This document shows, one piece after another, positions 21,190 to 55,226 of a DNA stretch of 64,000 nt. The stretch lies in the NCBI GenBank assembly GCA_963663235.2, contig CAXXNO010000012.1, positions 407,333 to 471,332 of the forward strand, written 5' to 3'. The stretch's first letter is position 1. Every line of letters starts with the position of its first letter. The position numbers and the translations under genes are program-made. The notes beneath the pieces were generated by a model that saw nothing but the letters and a program-made list of their open reading frames with translations, made no database searches and was not told the DNA's origin. The DNA is from Dehalococcoidia bacterium (GTDB lineage: Bacteria; Chloroflexota; Dehalococcoidia; Bin125).

Positions 21190-21251
21190 TTCCGGCAGTG
21201 TCGTCCGGATCCGCGAGCATCCGGCCGGCGGCGATCGCTAGGAGGATTGCA

Positions 21252-22331: not shown

Positions 22332-22368
22332 CGCACGCGCCAAGGCCGCTGATCCACTCTGTCTGCCT

Positions 22369-22397
22369 CCCGAGCGCGCCCTCTGGGCGCGCTCGGG
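22369..22397 (+). terminator. Perfect 13-bp hairpin between LLM paralogs 2 and 3
   Basis: CCCGAGCGCGCCC-TCT-GGGCGCGCTCGGG; no U-tract. Confidence 0.5.
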
Positions 22398-22494
22398 GCG
22401 ATCCCGTCCGTCCTAGGATCCAGCCAGGCGACCGCGGGTGCGCGCCGATCCGCTAGAATACCGAGAATCGCGCAACAACCAGTGGAGGGCATCG

Positions 22495-33316: not shown

Positions 33317-34378
33317 ATGATCTGGATCGCCGTCGCGCTGGCAGCCGCCGCTGTCTGGGCGCTCTCCAGCACGCTGCTCGCCTCGCAGACAAAACAAGTT
33401 GACACGATCTCTATCAGCGCCCTGCGGGCGTTCTGGGCAATCCCATTCTTCGTGGCTGCGCTGTTCGCCTTCGGGGCCCAGAGCGATATCGCCAAGATGA
33501 GCCTCGGCGACATCCTGCAAATCTTCGGCCAAGGTGTGGTGGGCCCCACATTGGGTGACACGCTCTACGTCGCCGCGATCGCCATGCTGGGGATGACGCG
33601 GGCGTTCACTACCGTCATGGGGCTGTATGGCCTGATGGCCTACGTTTGGGCGGCGATCTTCCTGGGCGAGTCGGTCTCCTGGGAGGTCGCGGCTGGATCA
33701 GTCTTGGTGATCACGGGCGTGTACCTGGTGGCGCTTTACGGCCGGCCGCGAGGCACCACGGCCCCCGAGCCGACCCGCCGTTGGGCGTGGGCTCGCCGGC
33801 GCAAGCCGTCCAGCATCGCGGGGGGCAGCGGCGCCGAAAAGGGGCGCATAGCGGCGCGCTCCACGCACGCGGCTCCATCAGAGTCCCGCAGTCCTCCGCC
33901 TCCTCAGCGCGATGCGATTCCTCTGCCGTGGGGCGGCTCGCTCCGGCCGCGCGTCGGCCTGGGCATCGCGGCGGCGCTCTTGGTCGGCCTGCTCTGGTCG
34001 GGATCGTCCGTGTGGCTGCGCAGCATCTCCGACGGGGTCGATGCGTCGGCGGTGGGGATGGTGCGCGTGCCGTTCATCGCGATGATCTTGCTCGGTGCGT
34101 CATGGTTCGTCCGCGGCTCCACGCTTCGGCGGAACAGGATCTCGCTGCGCAGCCACTGGGTCTTAGCGCTGTCCGGCATCATCGGCACCGGCCTCACGAC
34201 GCTCTTGTTCATCCTAGCCATACAAGAGATCGGCGCGGGCCAGACCGTCGTCTTGTTCTCCACATCACCACTGTTTGCGCTGCCGATGGGATTCTTCTTC
34301 CTGCGGGAGAAGATCACCATCTGGGTGGTCGTGGGCACAGTCGTCGCCGTGGCCGGCATCATTCTGCTGGCCGCCTAG
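33317..34378 (+). CDS. DMT/EamA-family transporter
   Basis: Two EamA halves (IFLGE; FFFLREKI) with a long hydrophilic linker. Confidence 0.88.
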   Translation: MIWIAVALAAAAVWALSSTLLASQTKQVDTISISALRAFWAIPFFVAALFAFGAQSDIAKMSLGDILQIFGQGVVGPTLGDTLYVAAIAMLGMTRAFTTVMGLYGLMAYVWAAIFLGESVSWEVAAGSVLVITGVYLVALYGRPRGTTAPEPTRRWAWARRRKPSSIAGGSGAEKGRIAARSTHAAPSESRSPPPPQRDAIPLPWGGSLRPRVGLGIAAALLVGLLWSGSSVWLRSISDGVDASAVGMVRVPFIAMILLGASWFVRGSTLRRNRISLRSHWVLALSGIIGTGLTTLLFILAIQEIGAGQTVVLFSTSPLFALPMGFFFLREKITIWVVVGTVVAVAGIILLAA

Positions 34379-34524: not shown

Positions 34525-35487
34525 TCAGGCGCCGATCGTGATACCGAGCAACGCGGCTCTCACGCCACAAAGAGCCACGAGTGTAAGCAAGAGACGGTCT
34601 CGCATGAACACGCCGACCGGATCGCCCCCACCACCACGGCGCAAAATCTGGAGATAACGCGCGAGGCCAAACGCCATGAACGGCGGAATCGCGTAGAGCA
34701 CCCCTCCGACCGGAGCACCCTCATCACCAGACCACTGCACGGTCAGCGCGGTCCAAGCAGCGAGCGCACCGATCGCCCCCATCAGCACGAGGAGATCCAG
34801 CGCGCGCGGGCGATAGCATCGAAGGACGCCGCGATGTGCAACGGCCTGAGAGCCGAGCGTCATCAGTTCCGCCCGTCGCTTCCCTGCGACCAGCACGAGG
34901 GCCGCCAGGAGCACGCTGAGATCCAGCCACAGCGGGATCTCCACCCCGCCCGCCTCAGCGCCGGCGCGCAGGCGGAACGCGAAGCCCACGGCCACAATCC
35001 CTAGCTCCAGGTAGGGCACACGTTTCAGGCCAAGTGAGTAGACGAGGGCGATGGCCGCATAGCCGGTGGCCAGAGTCCCGACGGTGTGGTCCAGTGCGAA
35101 CGCCAAGGGCAGCGCGAGTGTCAACAGGACGGCCGCCACCACGAGAGCCAAAAGCGGCGAGAGGCGGCGCGAAGCAATAGGCCGTTGCCGCTTGACGGGA
35201 TGCACGCGATCGCCGGGAGCATCGATGACGTCGTTCACCAGATACAGCGCGCCGGCGACCAACGAGAACAGGCCGGCGGCGGCGGCCACGTGTAGCACCG
35301 GTCGAGTCCAGGTGCCCGGGTCGAACAGGGACCAGGCAACGCCGAGTGTCAAAACCGATGGCACAAAGAGCAGCACATTCTTCAGCCACTGGGAGGGACG
35401 CAGGGCCCGCACCAGCGGGCGTCCCATGTCCGCGCGCAGGGAGACGCTCGGACGCTCGACAATCCTGGCGCTCTCGTAGGAGGTCAT
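34525..35487 (-). CDS. Decaprenyl-phosphate phosphoribosyltransferase-like UbiA-family protein
   Basis: LRPSQWLKN, YLVNDVID..DRVHPVKRQRPIAS, YSLGLK, GFAFR, KRRAE, typical of the DPPR-synthase subfamily. Confidence 0.85.
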   Translation of the reverse strand: MTSYESARIVERPSVSLRADMGRPLVRALRPSQWLKNVLLFVPSVLTLGVAWSLFDPGTWTRPVLHVAAAAGLFSLVAGALYLVNDVIDAPGDRVHPVKRQRPIASRRLSPLLALVVAAVLLTLALPLAFALDHTVGTLATGYAAIALVYSLGLKRVPYLELGIVAVGFAFRLRAGAEAGGVEIPLWLDLSVLLAALVLVAGKRRAELMTLGSQAVAHRGVLRCYRPRALDLLVLMGAIGALAAWTALTVQWSGDEGAPVGGVLYAIPPFMAFGLARYLQILRRGGGGDPVGVFMRDRLLLTLVALCGVRAALLGITIGA

Positions 35488-37160
35488 TGCTCCGGAGGCC
35501 CGCGCTTGAGCCGGAACAGCTTCCAGTCTGGGCCCGTCCCCGGGAAGTCCAGCACCTTCACGGCGCGCCCGTTCAATTCCGGATAGATGTTCGGGTTCGC
35601 CTGGTGGATGGCATTGAATTCATCGGCGCCGACAGGATTTGGGAGCAATACCCAGTCCGCGAACTCCCACGGCTCCTCTACGGCATCCGCATAACCGGAG
35701 TGCGTGTAGTCAAAGACTGTGTCGCCCTCAAGACCGTAGCGAACTGCGAAGCCCGATCCAACGTAGTCCAGTAACACCCGCTCTCCGTCAGGGACCAATT
35801 GCTCGATCGTCTCCCCCACGGCCTTCCCTTCGGCCAGCGCGCGATCCGGTACCCGTTCACCTCGGAGCGCATCCCAGACGGTGGCCTCGACCTCCGTACG
35901 TCCGGACTCGCCCAGCGTGATCGCCCCGATCAGAGCGCCGAAGGCCAAAAGGACCAAGAGCATGCCCGCAGCCACAGGTCGAACGACATGCTGCCAGCGG
36001 TTCGGCCGCGGGAAGGCGATGAAGATGTACAGCATGGCGGGAAACGAGAGCGGAATCACCAGCGTGTACGGCCGAATCACCTCAACGCCGAACCCAGCGG
36101 CGAGCAGGACCGCTTGGGTGGCCGGCACCGTGATCACCAGGAGGCCCAAGCCCGCCCCCATGACCGAACGTCGCAAGATCCCGACGCCCAGCGCCCCGAG
36201 GCCAGCGATGATGGCGGTCGGGAACGCGATCATGGTGAGCCAGGAGGCCAGGCGGATGCCGCCGATGGCGCCCAAGGCGTCTTTCTCCGGCGCCAGCGTC
36301 AGCAGACCTTGGTCGCCATAGAGGAACCACAGCCCGTGGTCCTTGATCAGCCAACTCGCGACGATCCACAGCAGCATCGGGTAGAGCGCCGCCGCCAGAA
36401 ACGCGAGAACGACACCAAACCCTCGCGACGCACGAGTGAAATCGTCCGGCCAGCGAGGGGCCGGCTCCTGCCACACGGACCGGATCAACACCAGCGCCGC
36501 GGCCACCAGGGCTACGATCATCAGTTCATAGCGAGTAACGGTGGCAAGACCCAGCCAGATGCCGGCGAACACGACATCAGAGAGCTGACCGTCCCGGTTG
36601 TACTTCAGCAGACGATAGGCACCTCCGGCGAGGAACGCATAGGCGATCGGTTCACTCACGCTCACCATGGCCATCGCGACGACAACCGGGTTGAGGATGA
36701 AGAGCGCGGTGAACGCGATCCGCATTTGCCAGCCGAAGCCCAGCAGTGCGCAGGAACGCCAAATATGGAATGAGGCTAGCGCCATGAACACCGACGAGAC
36801 GATGCCAACGGCATAGAAGCTGGTGAAGAGCGGCTTGATCGCCGCGAACGGAATGAGAACGAGAGTGGGGATGGGCGGCAGGAGGAACCCAATGGACGCG
36901 AGCCGGCGCTCTTCACCGTGCGTGACGAGGTGTGCGCTCAGCAAACGGATTACCGAGTCGTCGCCGCGCAGTTCGCGATCGAAGATCAACCAGGCGGACA
37001 GCGAGAGAAACAGGATCAGGACCAGGGCCGGGATGACCCAGGCCTCATTCCGCGCGATCCACGTATCACGGCTGCCGACGGCGGCGCGCCAGCGAGCCTC
37101 TGGCAACACGCGAGGGAGCGGGCGAGGCGGCGCTGAGCCGAGGCGACGCTCCACGCTCAT
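35484..37160 (-). CDS. GT-C fold membrane glycosyltransferase (family 39-like)
   Basis: GD..R loop, IGFLLPPIP, LNP, SEP, TRYE; many TM helices and a C-terminal extracytoplasmic domain. Confidence 0.75.
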   Translation of the reverse strand: MSVERRLGSAPPRPLPRVLPEARWRAAVGSRDTWIARNEAWVIPALVLILFLSLSAWLIFDRELRGDDSVIRLLSAHLVTHGEERRLASIGFLLPPIPTLVLIPFAAIKPLFTSFYAVGIVSSVFMALASFHIWRSCALLGFGWQMRIAFTALFILNPVVVAMAMVSVSEPIAYAFLAGGAYRLLKYNRDGQLSDVVFAGIWLGLATVTRYELMIVALVAAALVLIRSVWQEPAPRWPDDFTRASRGFGVVLAFLAAALYPMLLWIVASWLIKDHGLWFLYGDQGLLTLAPEKDALGAIGGIRLASWLTMIAFPTAIIAGLGALGVGILRRSVMGAGLGLLVITVPATQAVLLAAGFGVEVIRPYTLVIPLSFPAMLYIFIAFPRPNRWQHVVRPVAAGMLLVLLAFGALIGAITLGESGRTEVEATVWDALRGERVPDRALAEGKAVGETIEQLVPDGERVLLDYVGSGFAVRYGLEGDTVFDYTHSGYADAVEEPWEFADWVLLPNPVGADEFNAIHQANPNIYPELNGRAVKVLDFPGTGPDWKLFRLKRGPPEQ

Positions 37161-37236
37161 GGCTGGCGCACCGGTAGCGCATTATCGCGATGGGATTGGA
37201 GGCCCGCCCAGAGCGGCAGGCCGGGCCGCAGCGACC

Positions 37237-37461
37237 TCAGGCGACCTCGGAACCCCTTGGAGGTATCGACGACGGTCGCGGCCGGCCGCGATGGAGCCAG
37301 TATCGCTTCCGATCGGTGCGCACGACGAGAAGCGTGATGAGGCCGATCGGACCCCAGATGCCGCCAAGGAGTGCGCCGACGATCGGCGAATCGCCCAGCC
37401 GCCAAGCCAGCAACAGGCCCATTACAGCGGATACTAGCGGGATCACAACAACGAACAGCAT
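37237..37461 (-). CDS. Small two-TM membrane protein
   Basis: MLFVVVIPLVSAVMGLLLAW...GALLGGIWGPIGLITLL; SD GAGGG. Confidence 0.55.
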   Translation of the reverse strand: MLFVVVIPLVSAVMGLLLAWRLGDSPIVGALLGGIWGPIGLITLLVVRTDRKRYWLHRGRPRPSSIPPRGSEVA

Positions 37462-37550
37462 GGCGTCCCTCGCGTCCTGGGATAAGCATTCTATTCCATT
37501 CCATCTGGCCGGCCAATCGCTCGCTCCGAACGAGCAGCGCCGCGTATCCC

Positions 37551-37918
37551 TTACGCGGCGGACGCATTGCGGGTCAGCAGGGCCACCCCCCCGGCGATGA
37601 TTGCGATTGCCAGCCAGCGGGTCGGCGGCACCCGCTCGCCCAGGGCCCAGGCGGACAGGATGACGACCGCGACGTAACCCAGGGCCAGCATCGGATAAGC
37701 CACGTTGAGGGGAGCCCCGATAGCACCCAGAGCCACAAGACGAGCGAGAGGCCGTACGCCGCAAGGCCGCCCCAGATCATCGGCGCTGTCAGCGCATCCA
37801 CGACCACATCCATGGGGGCGCGTCCATCGCCATCACCGACGCCCTGTTTGAAGGCCAGTTGCCCGGCCACGCCCAGCCCAATCGATCCGAACAGCGGTAG
37901 CAACCATGCCAACATCAC
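37551..37918 (-). CDS. SMR/ArnEF-like lipid-linked sugar flippase, split by a one-base deletion at about 37710
   Basis: GQLAFKQG...WLWVLSGLP joins LNVAYPMLALGYV...LGE when one C is added to a C4 run. Confidence 0.78.
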
Positions 37919-39705
37919 ACACCCCCTGCGCGATCCAGCTCCGAGGCAAGCGCGCCTGCCACTTCCGAGCGGCCGTCTGACGGCACATCGTCCGCGTCGG
38001 ACGGCCCGATGACGCGGAACAGCCGATGCTGGGAGCCGCTCTCCGGGAAGTCGGCCACCAACTCCACGAAGCCTTCACTCCCCTCGTAAAGGTCGGGATA
38101 GATGCGATAGATCAAGTTGCGGTCCGGCTCATTGATCTTGGACGCGCCCACCAGGATGTAGGTCACGCCACTGCTGTAAGGCCGGTGCACGAGATCGTCG
38201 TAATCGCGGTCCGTATTGATCACCACCCGATCGCGGTGTTCGATGTCGAACAGCAACAGAATCGTCTGGGTGGCGTCCACAAGGAGCAGATCGTCCGGCT
38301 GGAGAACGTCGTTGATGAGACCGGCCACGGGAGCGTTGTCGTCCCGCCAAGAGACCGCGGATTTGCTGAACAGCCCGTTGCTCGGCTGGCCATCCGTGTA
38401 GAGGCCGTTGTCCGCCATGGAGAACGCAATGGTTGCGGCTGAACCGATTACCACCGCACCGAGCCCGGCGGCGCTGAGCCATTGCTGCCGCGCGTGCGAT
38501 CGCGCTGTCCAGACCAGGTAGGCCAGCACCACGAGCCCGAGTGGAGTCGCATGGTTCCAGTTGCGGAGATAAGGCGGAAGCGTCCCTGTGTAGGTCTGGG
38601 CCGCCTGCGCGACCGGCACAGACAAGCTGAGTGCGAGCAGCGCAAGCGCCATGCGGTCATGCCGCGCCACCACCCGCCAGACAAGGAAGGGCACCGCGAT
38701 AAGGAACGGCGCCGCGGCCTGCAGCATCTTCAGGCTTGCCTGCGTGATCGTGCCGAAGACCGAGCCCTGCGCGGCGAAGAAGTCATTAATCGGACCCACG
38801 ATGCGCGCCACATCCAAGGCGTTCGCCGTCGAATAGGCGGAGTTCAGGTAGAAGAAGGGGTCACCCTGGATCTGGTAGTTCAGCCATGTCCACAGCGCGA
38901 CGGCCCACAGCAGCGGGGCCGTCAACGTGACCAAGGAAGCGGCGATAAAGGGCGAGCCCTCGCGGGGCGCGCTGCGGAAATGCACCAGCAGGGCCAGCAC
39001 CGCCGCGAACGCGACCGTCTCGTAGCGCGCCAGAAACGCGAACGCGAGCGACACGCCCGCCACGATGAGCGTGGAGTGGCTCCCTTCGCGCTCCCAGCGC
39101 AGCACTTGGTACAGCGCGAGGAGCACGAAGAAGATCCCCATCACCTGCGTCATGCCGTTGGCGGAGTACAGCCAGATCAGAGGGTTCAGGCTCCAAGCCA
39201 GGAGCCACGCCACCTGCCAGCCGCTGGACAGACCCCAATGGGCCAGCACGCGGCGCATCACCACGAGGGTACCGGCGCCGAAGATCACCGAGACCACGGG
39301 TCCCGCGTACAGGGTGAGCCCAATGGGTGTGAGGATGGGGAGCAGGGCCAGCCTGAGCAGTGTTGGCAGAGGAGGCCAAACGAAGCCGATCGCCCCCAGA
39401 TGGGGATCGCGGCTGCTGAGCACGCTGACGGCATCGAACGTGCGCGTGAGGGAATCGCCGGGCTGCCTCTCCCAGATCTCGACGACAAGCACGGCGAGAG
39501 CCAAGTACGCGGCTAGGGCAACGATGAAGATCCCGACGTCCCCGCGCACGAGCGCCAGCAGACCCGGCCGATCGGCGTCCCCCGAGGCGACGGCCTGAGC
39601 GCCCCGTGCGGCGCGCGTGTACGTGGTCGATTGGACGGCGGCCCGGATCCCTGCCCGAGTGGACGTCACCGAGAGCGCCGGCAGCGGTAGCGGCCTGCGG
39701 TTCAC
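37915..39705 (-). CDS. GT-C fold membrane glycosyltransferase (family 39-like)
   Basis: GDSLTR, SRDPHLGAIGFVWPPLP, LNP...NGM, ARYE; paralogous to 35484-37160. Confidence 0.78.
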   Translation of the reverse strand: MNRRPLPLPALSVTSTRAGIRAAVQSTTYTRAARGAQAVASGDADRPGLLALVRGDVGIFIVALAAYLALAVLVVEIWERQPGDSLTRTFDAVSVLSSRDPHLGAIGFVWPPLPTLLRLALLPILTPIGLTLYAGPVVSVIFGAGTLVVMRRVLAHWGLSSGWQVAWLLAWSLNPLIWLYSANGMTQVMGIFFVLLALYQVLRWEREGSHSTLIVAGVSLAFAFLARYETVAFAAVLALLVHFRSAPREGSPFIAASLVTLTAPLLWAVALWTWLNYQIQGDPFFYLNSAYSTANALDVARIVGPINDFFAAQGSVFGTITQASLKMLQAAAPFLIAVPFLVWRVVARHDRMALALLALSLSVPVAQAAQTYTGTLPPYLRNWNHATPLGLVVLAYLVWTARSHARQQWLSAAGLGAVVIGSAATIAFSMADNGLYTDGQPSNGLFSKSAVSWRDDNAPVAGLINDVLQPDDLLLVDATQTILLLFDIEHRDRVVINTDRDYDDLVHRPYSSGVTYILVGASKINEPDRNLIYRIYPDLYEGSEGFVELVADFPESGSQHRLFRVIGPSDADDVPSDGRSEVAGALASELDRAGGV

Positions 39706-39850
39706 GCTGTCGCGCTCCCCTCATGCACGCGCACGACACCAGACCACCCGGCCCTGATCGCTACCGACGCGCGGCCCCCGCCCGGACACTTGAGCGGAGC
39801 CGACTGCACTACGTTCCGAAGTCTCGTCATGCGACGCACCAACAACGTCC

Positions 39851-40723
39851 CTACTGCGACAACAGCGCCCGGCTCGCAACGCGCATCTGAGACCGCCGGG
39901 CGAATTCCAAGGCCTGCTCGGCCTCGTTGATCAGATCGCCCACGGACACGGCATCTTCCGGAAACTCCGCCAAGCCGATGCGCACGCTGATGGCGAGATC
40001 CTGCTGGAGTCGCTCCACCAACCGCTCGGCGAGAATGCTGGCACCTGCGGACGGCGTCTCCGGGAGGATCAAGGCGAAGGCGGAGGGCGTGTGCTGGATC
40101 ACCTTGTCGGTGGTGCGCAGGATCCCGATCATCACCTCCACGACGCCGCGCAGCACGCGGTTCGCCTCGTCCGGGCCGCGATCCGACACGATCTGCGTCC
40201 AGTTCTCGATCCCCATCAGCATCAACGACAGCGAGTGATGGTAACGCCGAGAGCGCTCGTTCTCTTCGGTCAGCAGTTGCTGGCCGAAGCGGGGCTCCAG
40301 CGCGCCGGTGACAATATCGAAGCGGCTCAATTCACGGATTGCCTGACTCCGCGTGGCCAACTCACCGCGGACGTTCGCGCCGGCTGCGTGATAAGCCCGG
40401 GCCAAGAGCCACGCGCCCACCAGGGTCACAGCCATCACCGCGGCCGGCAGGATGCCGTCGTCCTGGAGGTCCAGGGCGGCCTGATTATCCGCGCGCGCGA
40501 TCATCACGATCGCGAAGGCCACAGCCGCGATCACGGCCGCAATCTCTACCGCGAACAAGACCGGGTGCGTCAGCACGGCGATCACGGCCACTGCCAGGAT
40601 GGCGACACCGAGCACCGCGAACTCGTCCTCATCAGTAACGAGCACCAGCACGCCAGCGCCGACAATTACCCACGCCGCCAAGCAGGCGGCCCAAAACTGT
40701 AAGAGCAGGGTGTACTTAATCAT
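39851..40723 (-). CDS. 4-TM protein with degenerate GGDEF domain (putative c-di-GMP receptor)
   Basis: DIVTG, ERSRRY..LSL, RTTD (RxxD I-site), active-site position reads TPSAF instead of GGDEF, ILPET, GLAEFP; start overlaps the upstream stop. Confidence 0.8.
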   Translation of the reverse strand: MIKYTLLLQFWAACLAAWVIVGAGVLVLVTDEDEFAVLGVAILAVAVIAVLTHPVLFAVEIAAVIAAVAFAIVMIARADNQAALDLQDDGILPAAVMAVTLVGAWLLARAYHAAGANVRGELATRSQAIRELSRFDIVTGALEPRFGQQLLTEENERSRRYHHSLSLMLMGIENWTQIVSDRGPDEANRVLRGVVEVMIGILRTTDKVIQHTPSAFALILPETPSAGASILAERLVERLQQDLAISVRIGLAEFPEDAVSVGDLINEAEQALEFARRSQMRVASRALLSQ

Positions 40724-42944
40724 GTTCCAGTTCCTCGCTGGAGCGATCCACGCGCCACAAGTGCAGCCCGAGTAACGCCAGGCCGAAGACACCCAGCGCC
40801 GCGACCACGGCCGCTATCACCTTGTCGTCAAAGTCCAGGCCGCCGTCGTCGTCGCCTTCGCGGTCGACGTCTGTGATATTGGCCGTGAGCGCCTCCGTGA
40901 TCTCGGCGGCGGTGCGGGGAAACGTTTCGACCTTGTCGCGGGCGGTCACCACCGTGAGGGGCCCACTGGCCTCCAGGCGGCCGAGGGCCCGTCTCCCCCA
41001 GAAGAGGCCGTCTCGGGACGTGCCTGTGACGACCAGAAGCGATTTCTCGGTGTTCCAGGGTGAGGGGGCGACCATCAGCACGCCCAGTTCCGCCTCCGGA
41101 TCGATCCCGCGATCAAGCAGGACCTCGGTGCGCAAGATCCGGTCGGTCCCATTGACGAACTGGAGCGGCAGGCTGGCGCCCGCCTCGTTGATCAAGCCGA
41201 GGGCGCTGGGCCGCCCCACCAGGATTACATGGTGCCCCGCAAGGAGCGCGTCCGTGACTTCATCTTCCGGCACCACACGCAGCGAGAAGGGGTCCAGCCC
41301 CGAGTACGCGCCGAGGTCAAAGACCAAGCCGAACAACTCCTCGGGCTGCATCCCGGACGGCACGACCACCAAGGTCCCGCTGGGGTCACCGAACGCGTCC
41401 ATGAACGGCCACGGATAGAAGGTGAGATCGTGCAGGGGGATGACGTCCGTGCCCGGGAGGCGGATCCGGCTTTCGGGATGAATCTCCAGCCAGGCGCGTT
41501 CTTCCGCGAGTGGATCGTCCAGGCAAGTGTTGAAGGGCCCTTCCGGCTGGTCCAGGATATATAGGCCGGTGGCGAGGGTCAGTTCGTTCACACCCGGACG
41601 GATCGCCTCCGCCGGGATCGTGATGGGAATGGAGATCCGCTCGAAGCGGCCGTCGAAGCGGAGCGGAATGGTCTCCAGGTTCACGCCGTTCAGGATGATG
41701 AGCAGATTGGAGGGCTCCGGGTCCAGCTCACGCGAGAGGGAGACGATCAACTCCAGCTCGCCATCGCCGGTGGGCGCGGGCGCCAAGAACTGGATCGTGG
41801 CGAGGGCACCGCTGATGCCCCGCAGCTGGATGCCGAAGGGCGCCTGCAGGTCGGCGAAGGCGAACTGCACACCCCCGTCAAACGGTTGCCCGCGGACCGT
41901 CGCGCCGAGTGCGTCGCGGACGATGGCGAACTCGCCGGCCAGCGTATCCATCCCTTCGCTGCCGGAGACCGCCTGAGCCGCCCTGCTCAGCCCGACGGGG
42001 CCGTCGCCAGAGACGATCAAGGCGCCGTGCTTATCGCTGAACGGACTCACGGTCTCTTGCAGGAAGCCCACGCTCGGACCGGTGACGGTGGCGCCGGTGG
42101 ACGATACGTCGCCACTCACCACAAGCGGATTCCGCCCCGTGGTGCCGACACTGATGATCGACGCATCGGCGGTGGCTGCCGACGACGGTACGCCGATGTC
42201 GAACCGCACCGGCACAAAGAACGCAGCGCCCGGGCCTACGATCTGTCCGAGGCCACCCACGATTGAGGCCGCGGCCGAGAGCTCTGCGCTGTTCGGATTC
42301 GCCGGCAGCAGCACGTGCGTGTCGGTCTTGAAGGGGAAGGGAAGGCGCAGATATGGCTCGGGATAGTTCGCAAGGTTCGGCACGAAGATCGGGCGCGTGT
42401 CGTCAGGCACGTACTCGTAGTGCAGCAGCGTGGGACTTTCGATGAGCGTCCAGAGCGCCGGGTTCTCCGCGTCGTCGCAGAAATCCGTGAGGCGCATGAG
42501 GAAACTCAATCCGATCCGGTTGAACAGCGGATCCAGGAGGCGGGCCGGTAGGTCCACCGTGATCGTCGTGGATTCGATGTTGATCTCGTCGAGCCGCACG
42601 GATGTCAGAGAGGAATCGTTCAGCAACACCGTCATGGTGGAGAGATCCGGGCGCAAGAGCGGCGAGTGGCTGAACGTCAGTTGCAAGAAATGACCAGACG
42701 GCTCCAGCACCCAGCCATCCGGACCGGGGAAGAAGATCTCCACGGTGGCGATGATCCCTCGCGCGACGACGTCTCTGATCTGCAAGTCAATCAAGGTGAC
42801 GTCTTGTGGCGGTGGATCGTCGGCGTGCAGTGACCGCACGCTCACGGCGGTCGCGCTCACAGCGACGGCCAGTAGCGCCACCGCAAGCAAAATCCTGCTG
42901 GACACCCGTCGCCAGACTTTGTGATTATTCGGTGCGTGCACCAC
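40716..42944 (-). CDS. BcsB-like polysaccharide synthase partner subunit
   Basis: Signal peptide; twofold repeat (FSHSPLL..DLSTMTVLLN / SNLLIILNG; LANYPEPY / LTFYPWPF; SPF / SPWN); C-terminal TM anchor; SD AGGAGG. Confidence 0.8.
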   Translation of the reverse strand: MVHAPNNHKVWRRVSSRILLAVALLAVAVSATAVSVRSLHADDPPPQDVTLIDLQIRDVVARGIIATVEIFFPGPDGWVLEPSGHFLQLTFSHSPLLRPDLSTMTVLLNDSSLTSVRLDEINIESTTITVDLPARLLDPLFNRIGLSFLMRLTDFCDDAENPALWTLIESPTLLHYEYVPDDTRPIFVPNLANYPEPYLRLPFPFKTDTHVLLPANPNSAELSAAASIVGGLGQIVGPGAAFFVPVRFDIGVPSSAATADASIISVGTTGRNPLVVSGDVSSTGATVTGPSVGFLQETVSPFSDKHGALIVSGDGPVGLSRAAQAVSGSEGMDTLAGEFAIVRDALGATVRGQPFDGGVQFAFADLQAPFGIQLRGISGALATIQFLAPAPTGDGELELIVSLSRELDPEPSNLLIILNGVNLETIPLRFDGRFERISIPITIPAEAIRPGVNELTLATGLYILDQPEGPFNTCLDDPLAEERAWLEIHPESRIRLPGTDVIPLHDLTFYPWPFMDAFGDPSGTLVVVPSGMQPEELFGLVFDLGAYSGLDPFSLRVVPEDEVTDALLAGHHVILVGRPSALGLINEAGASLPLQFVNGTDRILRTEVLLDRGIDPEAELGVLMVAPSPWNTEKSLLVVTGTSRDGLFWGRRALGRLEASGPLTVVTARDKVETFPRTAAEITEALTANITDVDREGDDDGGLDFDDKVIAAVVAALGVFGLALLGLHLWRVDRSSEELEHD

Positions 42945-42952
42945 GTCCCCTC

Positions 42953-44266
42953 CTATGCAACCGCCAGGGCAACCGCGAGCGTCCCGCTCCCGGTCACCGC
43001 CAGCGCCATTCCGATCGATGCAACGACTGCTGGCCGCGACCTGAACGGCAGCTGGCGATCGCCGCTCAGTGCACTCAGCGCCAGCAACACGACTACCAGG
43101 GCCGCCATCAGCGGCCCGATCAGTTGTCCCACGAAGGGCGTGGCCGTGATGCCAACCAGGGTCAGCAATCCAACCGCGAGTATGGCGAGTCCCACGAGAC
43201 CGGCGCCCGCTCCCGGATGTCCGCGACGGGCAGCCCACACGATCAGCGTCAGCAAGGGAAGGCCCGCCACGACGGCCGGCGCCGCGACCGCGATCTTCTC
43301 AGCGAACGACCAACCACCGATCGTGTTGCCCAGATCGGCGAAGGCGCCGCCGAACGCGCTCCACCAGACGCTCTGCGAACCGATGGCGAGCAGCGGGTCG
43401 CGGCCGCTCACCAGGTCGGCGAGCGCAACCACCCGGGTCCAAAGCACCGCCACAGCCGCGAAGACGACCGGCACGAGGTAGGCCGAGAGAACCGCCTCCA
43501 CGGCAGCGCTCCGTTGGATCCCGTCGCGGTCGTCCGCGGGCGTCGTCAGCCGGCGCAGTGTGCGTGCTCGCATGAAGAGCACGGCCAGGATCGCCAACGC
43601 CACGGGCACGACCGCATACCACATCATCAGCGTGAGCCCCACGAAGAACCCGGCGGTGACCACCGGCCCCGCTTCTCGCGATGGCGCCCAGCGCCAGAGC
43701 GCCGGTACCACGGCGATTGCGAGCAGGACCAGCGCGACCGTGGCGGATCCCGCTCCGGCCGTGAGCAGCACCAGTGGATTCACGAAGAACGCCGCCCAGA
43801 TCAGCCAGCGCAGGGGACGGCTCAGACTGAGCGACCGCAGCAGCGCCAACAGCATGGCCGACGCGATGGCCAGTACGAACGCGGCGGCAATCGGATCGGC
43901 AAGGCTGTGGCGGTCGATGGTATCTACCGCGGCGAAGGGAGCCCGCAGCAAGGCCCAGACGGGAGCCCAGGTCTGCGCCGCCCAGGTGTCGGCCTGGTAA
44001 TCCAGCGCGAGCGCGCGCCAGGATACGAGCGCGTCCTGCCACGCAGCCGGCAAGGGGCTGTGCCCCGGAAACGCCAAGAGCAACGCGGCCAGCAAGACGA
44101 GTGCGGGCGCCAACACCAGAGCCACCCAGATCTCACCGTGGGGCAGGACGACGGCCGCGCGCGGCCGCTCGATCATGCGGGCGGCCAACGCCGCCGGGCT
44201 CTGCGAGACCGGGGTGAGCGTGGGCGGCGCCATTTGCGGCTCAGCGCTGGAGACGAAGGTCGACAT
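42953..44266 (-). CDS. Multi-pass membrane protein, distantly GT-C-like
   Basis: About 11 hydrophobic segments; FVNPLVL motif shared with the two GT-C genes. Confidence 0.6.
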   Translation of the reverse strand: MSTFVSSAEPQMAPPTLTPVSQSPAALAARMIERPRAAVVLPHGEIWVALVLAPALVLLAALLLAFPGHSPLPAAWQDALVSWRALALDYQADTWAAQTWAPVWALLRAPFAAVDTIDRHSLADPIAAAFVLAIASAMLLALLRSLSLSRPLRWLIWAAFFVNPLVLLTAGAGSATVALVLLAIAVVPALWRWAPSREAGPVVTAGFFVGLTLMMWYAVVPVALAILAVLFMRARTLRRLTTPADDRDGIQRSAAVEAVLSAYLVPVVFAAVAVLWTRVVALADLVSGRDPLLAIGSQSVWWSAFGGAFADLGNTIGGWSFAEKIAVAAPAVVAGLPLLTLIVWAARRGHPGAGAGLVGLAILAVGLLTLVGITATPFVGQLIGPLMAALVVVLLALSALSGDRQLPFRSRPAVVASIGMALAVTGSGTLAVALAVA

Positions 44267-44275
44267 GTACGTGCC

Positions 44276-46898
44276 CTACCGTCTCTCTGTACCCACGGAC
44301 ACGACAACTTCGCCTCGGAAGAGGCCGTGCTCGGTCTTCTCCCAATAGAACGGCCGGAAGATCAGTTGGTATGCCGCCTTCCAGGCCGCCACGCTCATCA
44401 AGATCCAGTACAAGGGACTGATCAGGCCCCACTTCACCAGGCCGTAGTAGCGGCGCCGAAGGGCTCCGGCCATGGCGACATAGGCGAAGGCGAAATTACC
44501 GAAGTAGAGGGTCACGGCTCCCATGAAGAAGATGGGCGTGGGAAAGAGATCATTGATGAAGTCGGGTCGGAAGACCAGCCAGATCACCGTGATCGTCCAG
44601 AAGATCGGATTGGCCAGGAAGCCGAAAATCGTTCCCGCCATGATCATCTGGAACGAGAAGAAGCCGTACGTGCCGAGTTCGCGCCACAGCTTGATCGGCC
44701 GACGCATATGCACCAACCACGTCTGCATGTAGCCCTTCACCCAGCGGGAACGCTGGCGGATCCAGTTGCCCACGGCGGAGTTGGCTTCCTCGAAGGTCGT
44801 GGAGTCGATTACCGCGGTGTTCCAGCCGCGCTTGAAGATCCGCAGTCCCACGTCCGCGTCCTCCGTGACGTTGAAGGGGTCCCAGCCACCGACCTCGCGG
44901 AGCCGATCGGTCTTGAAGTGATTCGATGTGCCGCCGAGGGGAATCGGCGCGCCCGTTCCGTCCAGCCCCGGCATCAGCAGGTCAAACCACATGGAGTACT
45001 CGCTGGTGAACCAGCGCGTGAGGATATTCTGGTTGCGATTGAAGTAGTTCAGTTTGGCCTGCAGGCACACGTACTCATCCGGCAACTTCCGGAACGCCAC
45101 CACGGCCTTCCGTAGCTGGTCGATCTCGGGCACGTCTTCGGCGTCGTAGATGACCAGATACTCCCCGCGGGCGTGGAGCAGACCGTAGTTACAGGCCTTC
45201 GGCTTCCCTTTCGGATCGCCCTGCGGCACGATCAGCATCTCCATGTGCGGCGGAAGGCGGAGGCGGCGCACGGCCTCTACGGTCTCCGCGTCGTCCTCTT
45301 CCAGGATCACCTTGATGTCCAGTTTGCTCCGCGGATAATCGAGCGAGTTCAGCGCAGAGACGACCAGCGGCACGATCTGCGGTTCTCGATACATCGGGAC
45401 CAGCACGGTATAGATGGGGAGCGAGGCGTCTCCGAGTTCGGCGAGCTCTTCCTTGCTCGTTGGGACCTCGAACTCGTGTCCCAATGCTCGATAGATGAGG
45501 TAGAACTTGTACGACGAGAACGCCGTGTAGAAGGCAGCGGCGGCGCCGAACAACACCTGCAGCGTGATCTTCCAGTCCAGCAGCAGTCCCAGCACCACCA
45601 GCGCCCCGATACCCGCTGCCCAGAGCAACTGCCTCTTCGTGAATACGGTGGACGCCGAGTCTTCGGGGAAGCGGACCAGGAGCTCCGTGGCCGCCCGCTC
45701 CACGTACTCCGCCCGATAGATCCGCTCAAGGACCTGTTCAATCGCCTCCTCGGAAGCCCACACCGGCTGCACCGGCTGTCCGACCTCGCGCCGGATGGTC
45801 TCCAGCGCCGCGGTATTCAGTGGATCGGACATGGCCACCGTGATCCCGCTGTCGGTGACGAAGATCGGAATCGCCAGGTAACGACGCGCCGTGGCTTCGC
45901 TCAGGCGTCGCACGACCTGTTCCTCGGGTTCCATCTCGGCAAGGTCGAAGAAAGGGACCTCGTGCTGCTCGGCGAGAAAGGAAGCCAGTTGCTCGGCCGT
46001 GATGTAGCGCAGCTCGCGCAGCGCCTGCCCGAGGCGCACGCCAGTCGCGCGGCTCAGGCGCAAAGCATGCTGCAGTTCGGTGCGCGAGATGATTCCCGCC
46101 AAGCGCAGATGCTCTCCCAGCGAAAACTGTCCGTTGACGCGTTTGGTCGCAGCGCGCACTTCACCGCGCGGCGCAGCGACGACCGTGATCGGCGAGGACA
46201 GGGCCTCTTGCACTGCAGCCCTCGCCGCCTCGTCCGTGGGGTCGGCGAACGCGACGGTCAGCCGTCCATCCCGCTCCTCGTATGAGATGGCCACGTGTTG
46301 CTCGGCGATGGGCCGTGGCAGATGATAGGCAGCGGCCGGGTCCACCGGATCGACTGTGATGGTCTGGATGCTGCGCACGCCGACGGCGTCCACGACCTCC
46401 CGAGCCTCCTCGCGCAAATCGAGTGAGACGAGCGGGACGCCGGCCACCTGTGCCATTTCAGCCGCGACATCAGCCGGCATGAGCGTCGACGCGGCGAGCA
46501 CTGCCTCGTCGCCCGGAAGGCGCTCGTCCACCACTAGATGCCAAGCGCGGACGCGGTCCGCCGGCGAGAGTTTGCCCGCCTGAACGAGCCGGTCGGTCAG
46601 CAGATGCACTGAGGACGGCACCTCACCGCGGTCCACGCCGCGGGAGGCCGCCGCCATGGCGAATTCCCCGGGTGGCGCCACCGCCGCGAGCACTGGCCGC
46701 CCGATGCGATCGCTCAGCGCTCGCACGCGCTCCGGCGCGGGGTCCGTGAAGGCGATCGTGACAACGCCATCATCCCACCGCAGAGGGCAGGCCTGGAACT
46801 CCGCCACGTCAGCTTCGGAGAGGTGGCGGAGAACGGTGCGGTCGGGCAGCCAGCGCAGCGGCGACACATTCGGCAGCCCGTAGCTAATCGCCCGGGCT
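44276..46898 (-). CDS. Processive GT2 polysaccharide synthase with tandem N-terminal MshEN/T2SSE_N domains, 5' end cut by IS
   Basis: VLVPMYRE, KPKACN, YDAED, TED, QRSRW, WEKTEHG; MshEN motif SLGEHLRLAGII...RLGQALRELRYITAEQLASFLAEQ; three AFxDP/AMSDP repeats; ORF-track start lies inside the IS. Confidence 0.88.
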
Positions 46899-46965
46899 TG
46901 ACCTGCCCCCCCAGAACCGGTCCAGATCCTGTGCGAGGATTCGGGCCGGTGCGAAGGGAGTCGGC

Positions 46966-47244
46966 ATGGCACGCAAGCGGTACGCGGCCGAGGAGATCAT
47001 CGGCCACCTGCGGGAGGCGGAGGGGGTGCTCGCGCCGGGGGAATCGGTCGCGCCGGTCGCGCGCCGCCTCGGCGTGGCCGAGCCAACGTATTACCGCTGG
47101 CGGCGGGAGGACGGGGGGCTGCGGGTCGACCAGGCCAAGCGGCTGAAAGAACGGGAGCGCGAGAACAGTCGGCTGAAGCGGGTGGTGGCCGATCAGGCGC
47201 GGGACAACGCGATGGTGCGGGACGTCGCAGCGGGAAACTTCTGA
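46966..47244 (+). CDS. IS3 transposase OrfA (HTH)
   Basis: MARKRY..EEII..LRE...TYYRWR...ENSRLKRVVAD. Confidence 0.88.
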   Translation: MARKRYAAEEIIGHLREAEGVLAPGESVAPVARRLGVAEPTYYRWRREDGGLRVDQAKRLKERERENSRLKRVVADQARDNAMVRDVAAGNF

Positions 47245-48083
47245 GCCCGGCCAAGCGGCGCCGGGCGACATCCTACCGCACGGACCCGTACGCGGTGGCG
47301 GAGCGGCGGGCCTGCCCGGTCACCGGCCAGGCGCGGGCGACCCAGCGCGACGTGCCCCGGCCGTCCCCGGATGCGCCGGCGCTGATCGCGCGCAGCGTCG
47401 CGCTGGCCACCCGCTGCGGCCGCTACGGCTCCCGTCGCATCCCGGCCCGGCTGCGCCAGGCGGGCTGGCGGGTGAACCCCAAGCGGGTCGAGCGGCGCTG
47501 GCGTCAGGAAGGCTGGCGGGTCCCCGGGAAGCACCCCCAACGGGGCCGCCGCTGGCTCGCGGCCGGCTCGCGGGTGCGGCGGCGGGCCGAGCGGCCGTCC
47601 CACGTCTGGTCCGACGCCTTCGTCTTCGACCGCACCGCCGAGGGGCGCCCGGTGCGGATCCTCGCCATCGTGGATGAGGACCACCCGCGAGGGCCTGCGT
47701 CTCGACGTCGCCCGCCGACGGCGCCGCGACGTCGAGGCCTGGCGCGGTTGGCCCAGCTGTTCGTCGAGCGCGGGCCGCCGACGTTTCTGCGGTCCGCCAA
47801 CGGCCCGGCGTTCACCGCCACCGCGGTGCGGGACTGGCTGCACCGGGTCGGGGGCACGACCCGCTTCATCGAACCGGGCAGGCCTTGGGCGAACGGCTCT
47901 GGGGAATCGTTCAACGGCAAGCTGCGCGACGCGTGCCTCAATCGCGAGCGCTTCGACACCCTGCTGGAAGCCCAGATCCTCATCAAGGGCTGGCGGCGGG
48001 AGGACAACCCGATCCGCCCCCACCGTGCCCTCGGCTCCCGCCCCCCGCCCCGGAAACGCAGCAACCCCGGAAACGTCCCATGA
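47241..48083 (+). pseudogene. IS3 transposase OrfB, catalytically dead
   Basis: rve core recognisable (ESFNGKLRD, RPH) but DDE aspartate positions read Ala (WSDAF, RSANGPAF); local frame disruption at about 47680-47740. Confidence 0.85.
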
Positions 48084-48141
48084 CGCGCGTCCCGGCGATC
48101 GGACGAACTTAACGACTGGTACAACGATCGGGGGCAGGTCA

Positions 48142-48462
48142 CTTCAGTAGGTAGCTCTTGGCGCCGGCGCGCAGCGCCTCGAAGACGTAGCGGTCTTCGT
48201 CATAGTTCGAGAGGATGATCACCTCCGTGGCGGGGAACTCCGTACGAATACGACGGGTGGCCTCCACGCCGTCCATCCCACTCATGCGCACGTCCATGAG
48301 GACGACATTCGGGCGGAGGGCCTGTACTTTCTCGAGGGCCTGCTGGCCGTCCCCGGCCTCCCCCACGACTTCAAGATCAGGCGAGAGTGCGGTCATCTTG
48401 CGCAAGCCCTCGCGAATCACCGGGTGGTCGTCGACGATGAGGAGCGAGATGCGAGCCATCAT
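48142..48462 (-). pseudogene. NarL-type response regulator truncated by IS
   Basis: LIVDDHPVIREG, VLMDVRM, GAKSYLLK then a stop supplied by the IS end; last helix and HTH missing. Confidence 0.88.
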
Positions 48463-49980
48463 TCGACCTCCGGTCTCGGAATCGCCACTTCAATAATCGT
48501 CCCTACGTTGGGCTGGCTCACTATCGCCGCGCGTCCGTGCATGCGCGCGGCGCGCTCCCGCATGCCGGCCAGGCCGAAATGGTGTGAGGAGGCGGCTCCC
48601 GTGAGCGCCTCGTCGACCGGAAAGCCGACGCCGTTATCCTCCACGCTCACGGCGATGAAGTCTTCCGCAAACTCGACGGCGGTGCACACGGCCGAGGCGC
48701 GCGCATGCTTGTTCACGTTGAGCAATGCCTCCCGCGCGATCAGGAACAAGCCCTGCTGGATTGATTCCGGCAGCTGGACCGGCTCGCCCTCCACCACGAA
48801 GTCAAGTTGCAGGCCGTTGGTTCGGGCGAAATCCTCCGCATAGTCGCGCAGCGCCTCGCTCAGTCCAAGATCGCCGACGTTGGCCAGCCGCAGATCAAAG
48901 ATGAGACTGCGGAGCTGACTGATCACCCGTCTGACCTCATCCCGGACGTTCTGGATCGAGAGCGCGGCCCCGCGAGAATCCTGCTCCAGAACTCGCAGAG
49001 CCAGCTCGCTCTCAATCACGGCGCTGGTCAGCTGCTGGACCGGGCCGTCATGGAGCTCACCGGCCAAGCGTCGCGATTCGGCAGCTTGCAGTGTCTGCAA
49101 GTCGATACACCGATCTGCGTTGACGTCACTTCCCGTCAGCCGCTCGGCGAGCGTTCCCGCGGCCTCAGTATCGACGGTGTCGAAGGGCCGCTCCATCGGA
49201 TCGAAGAAGGCGAGGACACCGGCCTCGCCGTACGTGGCGGCGAGGGGGACAGCGAGCAGATCCACCACGCCGGCGCTCTGGAGGCGATCGCGTGCCGGAT
49301 AATCGTCCGTAATGAGCGGTCGCCGTTGAAGGGCAACAGGCGAGTGAGAGACTCGCGGGCGGCGACGCGAGCGGGCTCGGAGTCCTCGCCGGGCCACTCC
49401 ACGTAGCGGCACGCGCCCGTGGCGGTGGGGATCAGCGCGGTGACGCGAGACGCCCGCAGGAGCCGTCCGACGAGGCTGAGATCCCAGCCGCTCACGGTGG
49501 CCTCGCCCGAGGTCGGCGCCCAACGACCACCGACGTCCGCCACCACGACGATGTCCCCCGCGAGAGCGTCCACGGCTTCTGCCACCGACGCGGCCATCCT
49601 CAGGCGGGCCAGCACAGGGCCGAGGGTCGTGGCGAGACCCTGGAGCAAGCGAGCGCGCCCCTCCATGCGGTCCTGCGGCCCGCCGATCATGACCAGTTCG
49701 CCGAACGGCTCCTCCATGGGGAGCACCTGCCGCAGCACGAGGCGGATGGATCCGGACTTATCGGGCCAGACACGCATCGACGCGCCGTTCACCGACGCAT
49801 CCGCCCGGAGCTGGGCGACGGCCTCATACCACTCGCTGGGGAAGGGCCGATCCGGGTCATCGTACAGCCGGTCGTCCCCAGGACCAGCCCCCCCACGTCG
49901 CAGGCCGTGAGCGAGCGCGCAGCGCGCACGACGCCGGATAAGAAGGGACGCAACTCCGGCGTGGAAAAGTCTACTGGCAT
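48459..49980 (-). CDS. HisKA_3 (NarX-type) sensor histidine kinase with GAF-like region, split by two frameshifts
   Basis: ESRRLAGELHDGPVQ, REALLNVNKHA, DNGVGF, FGLAGMRERA; three ORFs join by adding one base at 49876-49879 and one at 49331-49333. Confidence 0.8.
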
Positions 49981-52897: not shown

Positions 52898-53158
52898 GAC
52901 CCATTTATCCCCGCGCCGCAATGGTCCCGACGCGCCAGCATCGGCGGGCGGCGGGGGCGTCCGTAGCCTTCCTGCGTCCGGATGGTGAAGGAACCGTAGG
53001 GGGGCGCAGGCGTTTTCTAGTGGGACGCGGCGGACGCCGCCGCGGCAGGTGTGGTCTTGCCCGCTCCGCGAGAGTCGGTAGGCTGGAAGATGGTCGGTGA
53101 CATGACGTCAGTCCGAGCGGCGCGCGGCATGCTGGTGGGGTAATGGGACTGGGTGCGA

Positions 53159-55151: not shown

Positions 55152-55226
55152 AGCCGCCAGCGGGGATATTCCGCGCGTCCCACGGCTTCCGCCACACCGG
55201 CGGCCAAGCAGAGAGGGAGGATCGGA

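Follow-up and report, generated by a model that had tools for sequence, protein, structure and literature searches.

What does a run of nine genes, all read in the same direction, build in a bacterium of the class Dehalococcoidia, and do these genes form one system or two? They lie on the minus strand, between positions 34525 and 46898, of a 64,000-nucleotide stretch (the window) of contig CAXXNO010000012.1, in a host genome of 2.75 Mb with 68% G+C, 14 contigs and 91.9% completeness. An earlier note, made from the letters alone, had read the locus as a hybrid in which a polysaccharide backbone, extruded by a synthase under cyclic di-GMP (c-di-GMP) control, is branched outside the membrane with a lipid-linked pentose. 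The gene families of both halves of that proposal held up; co-occurrence in relatives proved to be limited to the first half. We favour, at somewhat better than even, the view that the locus is a composite exopolysaccharide (EPS) operon of two modules, damaged in this genome. That its core is a c-di-GMP-gated EPS synthase we hold with good confidence, and that the second module decorates the core's own polymer we place slightly short of an even chance. The nine open reading frames (ORFs), from the synthase onwards, are as follows.

44276 to 46898, minus strand: multi-MshEN GT2 synthase, of which the 3' 874 codons remain and the 5' 397 codons are lost (Pfam, NCBIfam, comparison with an intact allele).
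42953 to 44266, minus strand: divergent GT-C paralogue of 437 amino acids (aa), lacking the C-terminal domain and probably catalytically degenerate (hhalign).
40716 to 42947, minus strand: BcsB-like subunit with N- and C-terminal hydrophobic helices (Pfam BcsB).
39851 to 40723, minus strand: degenerate GGDEF protein with four transmembrane (TM) helices, a candidate I-site c-di-GMP receptor of the YdaK/PssE type, 290 aa from an ATG at 40723 (Pfam GGDEF).
37915 to 39705, minus strand: GT-C paralogue 1 (GT-C1), 596 aa, with a membrane domain and a C-terminal alpha/beta domain (AlphaFold2 model, Foldseek).
37551 to 37918, minus strand: EamA-type, 4-TM (ArnE/F-like) putative lipid-sugar flippase gene, frameshifted at 37717 (EamA matches).
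37237 to 37461, minus strand: ORF of 74 aa with two hydrophobic stretches, a doubtful gene (ORF only).
35484 to 37160, minus strand: GT-C paralogue 2 (GT-C2), 558 aa, whose stop overlaps the UbiA start by 4 bp (paralogy, weak PMT_2).
34525 to 35487, minus strand: UbiA-family, polyprenyl-phosphate phosphoribosyltransferase-like gene, 320 aa, single-domain and similar to DPPR synthase (Pfam UbiA).

Family calls came from Pfam and NCBIfam profile searches of the nine cluster proteins and upheld those of the earlier note for GT2, BcsB, GGDEF, UbiA and GT-C. Its description of nine co-oriented, often overlapping genes was also correct. All nine ORFs have a coding-type G+C content at third codon positions, and the closest relatives of their products are in Chloroflexota. 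The GT2 gene and the 437-aa ORF are 9 nt apart, the latter and the BcsB-like gene about 5 nt, and the BcsB-like and GGDEF genes overlap by 8 bp if the ATG at 40723 is the start. Further overlaps of 4 bp join GT-C1 to the EamA-like gene (37915-37918) and GT-C2 to the UbiA gene (35484-35487). The cluster ends at its 3' side against a convergent EamA transporter gene (33317-34378).

In our model, module 1 (46898 to 39851) would be a synthase-dependent machine gated by c-di-GMP, like the Pss system of Listeria or the Yda system of Bacillus. The processive GT2 would polymerise and translocate the chain and carries N-terminal MshEN repeats, the membrane-proximal one of which appears to keep the c-di-GMP motif. 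The degenerate 437-aa GT-C copy would be its membrane partner, alongside the BcsB-like subunit, and the 4-TM degenerate GGDEF protein would sense c-di-GMP at an RxxD I-site.

The synthase matches Glyco_trans_2_3 (E 9.4e-22) and, in three stretches, MshEN (E 2.2e-42; an intact allele has four such stretches). Its translation shows EDD, DAED, TED and QRSRW, and the GT region is whole despite the 5' truncation. The processive GT2 with D,D,D,QxxRW motifs and several MshEN repeats announced by the earlier note was thus confirmed in family and motifs; the gene end it had placed at 46898 is the edge of an insertion sequence (IS), and the gene is truncated at its 5' side. Within the N-terminal region of the protein, the membrane-proximal MshEN repeat is the best-conserved part by invariant columns, and it scores 46.4 bits against the NCBIfam c-di-GMP motif model NF053729 (cut-off 38). 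Each MshEN half-motif in the window keeps 9 of the 11 key positions of the published relaxed pattern (PMC5013675). The published regular expressions, strict and relaxed, gave no match in the window protein, and support for the motif comes from position scoring and the NCBIfam model.

The BcsB-like protein, also named in the earlier note, matches Pfam BcsB with E 7.8e-45 and 153.8 bits (cut-off 21) and the E. coli BcsB chains with E 5.6e-5; orthologues are present in four relatives' loci (G027, L019, L022 and L115). The next protein matches Pfam GGDEF (E 2.6e-16) behind four hydrophobic helices, and its motifs run in the order RTTD-KVIQH-TPSAF, where TPSAF occupies the GGDEF position and the RxxD lies five residues upstream. 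In all five partner proteins compared (5/5), RxxD (R203/D206) and RxxR (R157/R160) are invariant and GGDEF is degenerate, in line with the earlier reading of a 4-TM degenerate GGDEF protein with RxxD. The invariant I-site, together with the NF053729 score, speaks for the c-di-GMP-gated synthase with BcsB-like partner and RxxD receptor that had been proposed; binding of the nucleotide would be expected at both places.

Two published receptors offer a close comparison. The excerpted text of PMC5422440 gives Bacillus YdaK four TM helices, an SDERI sequence, an I-site (R202-D205) needed for EPS and a secondary RxxR (R157-R160). According to the excerpt of PMC4125290, Listeria PssE has DKDDA with an RxxD five residues upstream and a Kd of 0.79 uM; its gene accompanies those for the GT2 PssC and the BcsB orthologue PssD, and the authors argue that the polymer is distinct from cellulose or poly-N-acetylglucosamine (PNAG). 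The PssA-E system of Listeria monocytogenes and YdaJKLMN of Bacillus subtilis therefore share with our locus a processive GT2, a BcsB-like protein and a membrane-bound degenerate GGDEF protein with RxxD in the same operon. Our locus differs in that the N-terminal MshEN repeats would give the GT2 a second c-di-GMP sensor, and in that GT-C-family membrane proteins accompany the synthase. A glycoside hydrolase in the role of YdaJ or Lmo1913 was not found among the nine cluster proteins (Pfam). The characterised MshEN-GT2 protein is E. coli NfrB, the GT2 behind the N4 glycan receptor, whose single MshEN domain is C-terminal in the excerpt of PMC8669469; here the repeats precede the GT domain. No NfrA-type outer-membrane partner was found among the cluster proteins, and the GT region gave no match to the NfrB model.

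An ordinary BcsA-BcsB cellulose synthase operon with extra neighbours would explain part of these results, since it has the catalytic and membrane region of the GT2, and a BcsB-family protein, in common with our locus. Among solved structures the GT region comes closest to BcsA chains (E 9.3e-16 with 4hg6), the NCBIfam CelA model matches with E 6.5e-23, and the partner is of the BcsB family. However, the CelA match reaches 80.6 bits against a cut-off of 699, far below the equivalog level, and PgaC does nearly as well (E 1.9e-18). No PilZ family match was found among the cluster proteins (Pfam), and c-di-GMP sensing would go through MshEN and the GGDEF I-site instead. The cluster also lacks a glycoside hydrolase gene, and the Listeria BcsB orthologue sits in the Pss operon, whose product is the polymer mentioned above. 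We regard cellulose synthesis as highly improbable, and go on with the c-di-GMP-gated synthase of the Pss/Yda type.

Does this core exist elsewhere? Gene neighbourhoods were compared in a GT2-centred set, consisting of the best 80 loci with one genome per species plus 10 further loci of the same class, and in a UbiA-centred set of 80 metagenome and 4 genome loci, 51 of the 84 being at least 6 kb long. Neighbours were detected by tblastn with the window proteins, so other GT-C families are missed, such as the DUF2079 protein beside the UbiA gene of G027. The core of GT2, GT-C, BcsB and GGDEF receptor recurs in Chloroflexota relatives. In five annotated loci (G027, L016, L017, L019 and L022) one or two PMT_2-like GT-C genes come after a multi-MshEN GT2 gene. 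A BcsB gene and a gene for a membrane GGDEF protein of about 285 aa are present in most of these loci as well; neither was seen in L017, and no BcsB in L016. The relatives' synthases carry 5-6 MshEN stretches, or 3 in L022. The further same-class loci show the GT2 and GGDEF pairing again, with GT-C or BcsB in some. Across the 80 GT2-centred loci, a GT-C of the same family was found in 32 (32/74 among those with at least 2 kb downstream), and in 25 of the 74 assessable loci its match starts at most 1.2 kb downstream of the GT2 gene on the same strand. BcsB was detected in 11/80 (16/80 at E<=1e-3) and the GGDEF partner in 4/80. The 48 loci with no GT-C match belong mostly to Bacteroidota, Proteobacteria and Patescibacteria. 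GT-C1 itself is 26-30% identical to the GT-Cs that lie downstream and adjacent to synthases of other genomes, with E down to 5e-43.

Two observations on these relatives stand apart. In G027, the closest relative of the same class, the gene directly 3' of the one for the GGDEF receptor, and in the same orientation, encodes a 2589-aa protein with FG-GAP, RHS-repeat and CARDB matches (L013:2015-9784). In L019 (8005-12202), the MshEN and GT2 regions are found in two overlapping ORFs of 586 and 833 aa, which represent either a split gene or an assembly frameshift.

The GT-C proteins were examined by family, fold and motif. GT-C1 and GT-C2 have weak PMT_2 and LA_3751/3752-family matches in Pfam and NCBIfam and are 25% identical to each other over their full length (E 1e-16). 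An AlphaFold2 model of GT-C1 (mean predicted local distance difference test score, pLDDT, 82.4) has 28 Foldseek matches in the PDB at E<=0.001, headed by ArnT (5f15, 2.2e-6); those listed are all GT-C proteins (ArnT, STT3, DPY19, ALG, AftD, AftA and PglB). In an alignment of 28 GT-C members, the position of D84 in loop 1 is D or E in 28/28 and R88, four residues on, is conserved in 27/28; NP, NGMSE-like and RYE motifs are conserved as well, and GT-C2 retains D..R, ..SE and RYE.

The 437-aa protein is more distant. It has no Pfam match, a word-based homologue search with it returned itself alone, and a HMMER scan of 1.84 billion representatives found only 4 remote relatives. Three of these measure 541-573 aa and the fourth 253 aa; weak PMT_2 matches occur in two and a weak PIG-U match in one. 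Against the GT-C alignment it gives an hhalign probability of 98.3% (E 1.4e-14). The best Foldseek matches of its AlphaFold2 model (pLDDT 78.7) are GT-C enzymes, none at E<=0.001, and this model leans towards the GT-C fold because GT-C sequences made up most of the alignment behind it. Its C-terminal domain is missing, the family motifs NGMSE and RYE are replaced by AGSAT and WYA, and we read the protein as a GT-C that is probably catalytically degenerate. The two clear GT-C proteins and the weak one at 42953-44266 reported in the earlier note were all borne out, and both the BcsB family and the GT-C fold, on which its proposal depended, found support.

The proximity of GT-C genes to this synthase clade raises another explanation, namely that the GT-C proteins are subunits of the synthase complex and not decorators, acting either as a structural partner for exit or hand-off of the chain or as an enzyme that moves the finished chain to an anchor. 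It would account for the GT-C that flanks the GT2 in 32/80 loci of Chloroflexota, Actinomycetota and Bacillota, for the five annotated loci in which no donor-synthase gene was seen, and for the GT2-adjacent 437-aa copy, which has lost two of three conserved charged motifs. A complex prediction of the GT2 membrane and GT part with the GT-C1 membrane part points weakly the same way, and is weak support for the two-module reading too: it scored 0.58 where the best of three controls scored 0.01, with contact agreement of at least 74% between runs and a partner pLDDT of at least 75. In calibration, 116 of 157 solved complexes and 2 of 215 mismatches reached this mark; of the 157, just 18 did so while staying at or below 0.60, as did both passing mismatches, and a score in this band is more often wrong than right unless the complex was likely beforehand. 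The loop-1 D/E (28/28) and the arginine (27/28) typical of active GT-C enzymes are conserved, however, the fold of GT-C1 matches catalytic GT-Cs, and the donor genes may lie elsewhere in those genomes. A purely subunit role for the GT-C proteins thus strikes us as improbable, and we return to the two-module operon, in which GT-C1 and GT-C2 would be enzymes.

In that model, module 2 (39705 to 34525) would be a three-component system for extracytoplasmic pentofuranosylation. The DPPR-synthase-like UbiA protein would load ribose-5-phosphate from phosphoribosyl pyrophosphate onto polyprenyl phosphate, the 4-TM EamA-type protein would flip the lipid-linked sugar, and the two GT-C enzymes would transfer the sugar outside the membrane, most plausibly to the nascent polymer. 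The transferred sugar would be ribofuranose rather than arabinofuranose.

The UbiA protein matches Pfam UbiA (E 1.4e-18); in NCBIfam it comes closest to decaprenyl-phosphate phosphoribosyltransferase (E 2.9e-48; 164 bits, short of the cut-off of 207), and its sole sequence matches in the PDB are the mycobacterial DPPR synthase (DPPRS) entries 8j8j and 8j8k (E 3.8e-29, residues 20-310), as the earlier note's DPPR-synthase-like label had anticipated. N85, D86, D89 and D93 of its NDxxDxxxD motif are invariant across 9 homologues, and the gene is single-copy in the host genome. The small gene upstream was correctly placed among SMR/ArnEF-like flippases in so far as it belongs to an EamA-type 4-TM family (C-terminal half, EamA E 6.4e-5); the break of its frame at 37717 had been overlooked. 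The small membrane protein of the earlier note did not survive: the 74-aa ORF has no Pfam match at E<=5 and no tblastn match in the 90 GT2-centred or the 84 UbiA-centred loci, and is an ORF with no family.

Which pentose would be transferred depends on epimerisation. The earlier note had left arabinose or ribose as the donor and had called for a genome search for DprE1 and DprE2. No ALO-domain match, which would point to DprE1, was found in the host genome (91.9% complete), and the positive control was found in Corynebacterium glutamicum. A DprE1-like query from locus L154 matched the FAD-binding subdomain only (E 1.9e-10), and a DprE2-like query, which was run with no positive control, gave no match at E<=1e-5. 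Because no DprE1/DprE2 pair was found, ribofuranose seems more likely than arabinofuranose, unless an unrecognised epimerase exists.

The nearest characterised counterpart of module 2 is the three-component system of Citrobacter youngae (ORF15/14/12). Kelly et al. 2024 described three-component extracytoplasmic pentofuranose addition to O antigens, with relatives carrying several GT-Cs in Bacillus and Xanthomonas (PMC11127046, excerpt; PMC11194591); mycobacterial DPPRS/Rv3789/Emb-Aft and pilin arabinosylation in Pseudomonas are related. Shared with it are a UbiA-type phosphoribosyltransferase, a small 4-TM flippase candidate (its gene frameshifted in this strain) and GT-C genes, found together. 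In contrast, the UbiA protein here is single-domain with no HAD part, the cluster has no phosphatase or epimerase gene, the flippase candidate is EamA-type and of another family than the one in the paper, the GT-Cs are of an unassigned, PMT_2/ArnT-like family, and the neighbouring backbone system is synthase-dependent. The terms 'synthase-dependent', 'exopolysaccharide' and 'cellulose' do not occur in the main text of PMC11127046. Each half of the locus consequently has a characterised analogue (PssC/D/E and YdaK-N for one, the three-component systems for the other) that the earlier note, which recognised no characterised pathway, had not named.

Homologues of the UbiA protein turn up in other settings. 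At 33-41% identity they occur in 8 of 16 sampled genomes of other families of the class and in 0/24 of the same family; the metagenome scan used this single protein as query, and all relatives are at most 41% identical. In L137, L142, L154 and L170, genes for SDR and FAD_binding_4/ALO proteins, which form DprE2/DprE1-like pairs, lie directly downstream of the UbiA homologue. As judged from sequence, this UbiA-SDR-FAD_binding_4 order is the one expected of a complete polyprenyl-phospho-arabinose pathway, here beyond the named actinobacterial cases. Other neighbours are PAP2 (L140 and L147), GtrA (L147) and, in L122 and L151, genes for Wzy, Wzz and UDP-glucose dehydrogenase. Many large membrane ORFs with no assigned family also adjoin UbiA homologues.

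Are the two modules then one system? Two separate systems that happen to lie side by side are the main alternative. The core polymer would be undecorated or decorated in another way, and GT-C1, the EamA-like protein, GT-C2 and the UbiA protein would glycosylate another acceptor, such as a surface protein, a pilin, a lipoglycan or a wall polymer. This would fit the absence of a UbiA-type gene from all 90 GT2-centred loci and of the window's GT-C and synthase genes from all 84 UbiA-centred loci, as well as the acceptors known for three-component systems, which are O antigens, pilins and arabinan (PMC11127046, excerpt; PMC11194591). Two sortase genes and a 646-aa ORF 6-10 kb away are also in its favour. 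Nonetheless, the nine genes are co-oriented with short gaps or overlaps. A promoter and terminator scan gave nothing above shuffled sequences (3 against 1.2 expected and, for terminator-like sites, 7 against 7.1 expected), and thus is silent on one versus two transcripts. The homology of GT-C1 to GT-Cs directly downstream of other synthases indicates that at least GT-C1 belongs with the synthase family. We judge two independent systems unlikely, although less so than either alternative above.

For one composite operon, a single tight, co-oriented cluster and a GT-C1 homologous to synthase-linked GT-Cs make it plausible that the tail decorates the core polymer. Several results weigh against this. 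A gap of 145 nt (39706-39850) separates the GGDEF gene from GT-C1, that is, the two modules. By tblastn, the UbiA, EamA-like and 74-aa ORFs were found in 0/80 and 0/10 GT2-centred loci, and the window's GT-C, GT2, BcsB and GGDEF proteins, like the EamA-like protein, in 0/84 UbiA-centred loci. The earlier note had made co-occurrence in relatives a test of its proposal; the core did recur, and the UbiA protein, the flippase and the small ORF were not found beside the synthase. The UbiA homologue of G027 lies on a separate contig, adjoining the DUF2079 membrane protein. Relatives retain GT-C genes with no donor synthase encoded in cis, and their GT-Cs therefore need another donor or have another role. 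The synthase clade occurs in 19/401 genomes of the same class (G000 included; E<=1e-100) and in 0/25 of the same family, a patchy distribution that marks it as accessory. No phosphatase for removal of the 5-phosphate (HAD or PAP2) was found in the UbiA protein or the other cluster proteins (Pfam and NCBIfam). At the motif level, the MshEN motif of the window has R at the turn glycine of the family consensus and S in place of the first R, and in GT-C1 a Q stands at the NGMSE position that is E or D in most relatives. We infer the coupling of the modules from one operon in one lineage, and since the arrangement is seen only here we place it, as said, a little below even.

The locus also carries two lesions, both of which the earlier note missed. 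The first lies at the 5' end of the synthase gene, where the following features were found.

46899 to 48141, plus strand: IS3-family insertion sequence (HTH_Tnp_1 and rve ORFs), with inverted ends TGACCTGCCCCC / GGGGGCAGGTCA and no matching 3-bp flanks.
48139 to 48462, minus strand: receiver domain of a response regulator, which breaks off at position 99 of the 111-position profile and takes its stop codon from the IS end (Pfam, junction reading).
48459 to 49523, minus strand: histidine kinase with GAF and HisKA_3 domains, likely to be the operon's cognate regulator (Pfam).

The GT2 open frame extends 25 codons into the IS. Another assembly has an intact allele (P0002, 1272 aa) with 99.4% identity to the window's product over residues 398-1272; residues 1-397 of that allele were not found in the host genome. 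In L019 and L022, a HisKA_3 kinase and an intact NarL-type regulator with a GerE domain adjoin the system. Sequence is lost on both sides of the IS and its 3-bp flanks (gct and ctt) do not match. The event resembles an IS-associated deletion, of roughly 1.7-2 kb, more than a simple insertion; what it appears to have removed is the output domain of the regulator, the intergenic region and codons 1-397 of the synthase gene. BLAST of the IS3-family element against the host genome gives 20 rows, of which several lie at contig ends and two are just 85% identical, and a second copy begins at 63540 (63540-64000 of the window). The element is probably a main cause of the assembly breaks.

The second lesion is in the EamA-like gene, whose two halves lie in two frames because one base is missing at 37717. 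A 113-aa allele (P0031) is in frame across the site, reading ..VLSRAPLNVAYP.., and matches EamA with E 4.5e-6. Among contigs from public sequencing runs, X7, X10 and X11 agree with the window at 37717, and X12 has an extra G that restores the frame together with 10 substitutions. The frameshift is thus present in three runs from two studies, and one of these runs may be the window's own source. Six further runs (X1-X6), with just 0.05-0.07 of the words, were left out. At the IS junction, X7 is identical to the window over 37500-46925, the X12 contig ends at 46899 with a 56-letter record spanning 46870-46925, and the X10 and X11 contigs continue for 319 and 638 letters beyond 46899 with sequence unlike the IS. 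Our guess is that these last two carry an intact synthase allele. Four contig joints seen in public runs had sides of just 20-21 letters and were treated as chance. A further difference concerns the 3' end of the EamA-like gene (37551-37600), where P0031 changes frame at a G-run (..IIAGGWPC) and the window continues to ..GGVALLTRNASAA; no run had an indel there, so it may be an error in the P0031 assembly.

The lesions appear to be polymorphic among close strains. With a truncated synthase and a frameshifted flippase gene, the machine is probably inactive or deregulated in this strain, and a functional system here would surprise us.

Some other features of the window are recorded for completeness. 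A gene with nucleotidyl-transferase and hexapeptide-repeat matches (50191-51222), of the sugar-1-phosphate nucleotidylyltransferase type, is divergent from the kinase gene and could supply the synthase donor. Two adjacent sortase-domain ORFs in overlapping frames, followed by the 646-aa ORF with no Pfam family (53153-57167), might be a unit for anchoring surface proteins and perhaps provide glycosylation with another acceptor. Farther away lie three tandem luciferase-like monooxygenase paralogues (20002-23574, direct repeats 68-76% identical) with a partial fourth copy (16952-17641), two tandem Hydantoinase_B/oxoprolinase paralogues (13305-16927, 77% identity across a 300-nt repeat), and, between an unassigned 286-aa ORF and a PALP-enzyme gene, a pair of 53-nt direct repeats with 94% identity and a spacing of 72 nt (58119-58243).

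What would this locus mean for its family? Both halves are of known kinds, and what appears new is their union and the pairing of GT2 with GT-C. No description of either was found in open-access papers and preprints, where no search was aimed at the union itself, and a literature search found no paper on a DPPR transferase in Chloroflexi; one on XagB turned up nothing relevant to this clade. GT-C enzymes have been described as glycosylating O antigens, teichoic acids, pilins and mycobacterial arabinan outside the cytoplasm; for polymers of BcsA-like synthases no description was found, no search having been aimed at that combination. The significance of a decorated polymer is tempered by the fact that the coupling comes from one damaged operon.

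We nevertheless put forward a wider hypothesis, which we hold as doubtful though somewhat better placed than any of the alternatives weighed above. The MshEN-GT2 and GT-C pair (32/80 loci) would mark a widespread, uncharacterised class of c-di-GMP-gated synthases with an obligate GT-C partner. Its polymer would be branched on emergence by synthase-docked GT-Cs using polyprenyl-phospho-ribofuranose, and the Chloroflexota forms would be gated by two sensors, MshEN and the GGDEF I-site. The IS-truncated synthase, the frameshifted or intact flippase gene and the 1272-aa allele are natural variants that could be used as ready-made mutants. If the GT-C partners act on the nascent chain, they would provide a new route to diversify biofilm polysaccharides, and also a way into a large, uncharacterised clade of synthases from phyla of the Gram-positive type.

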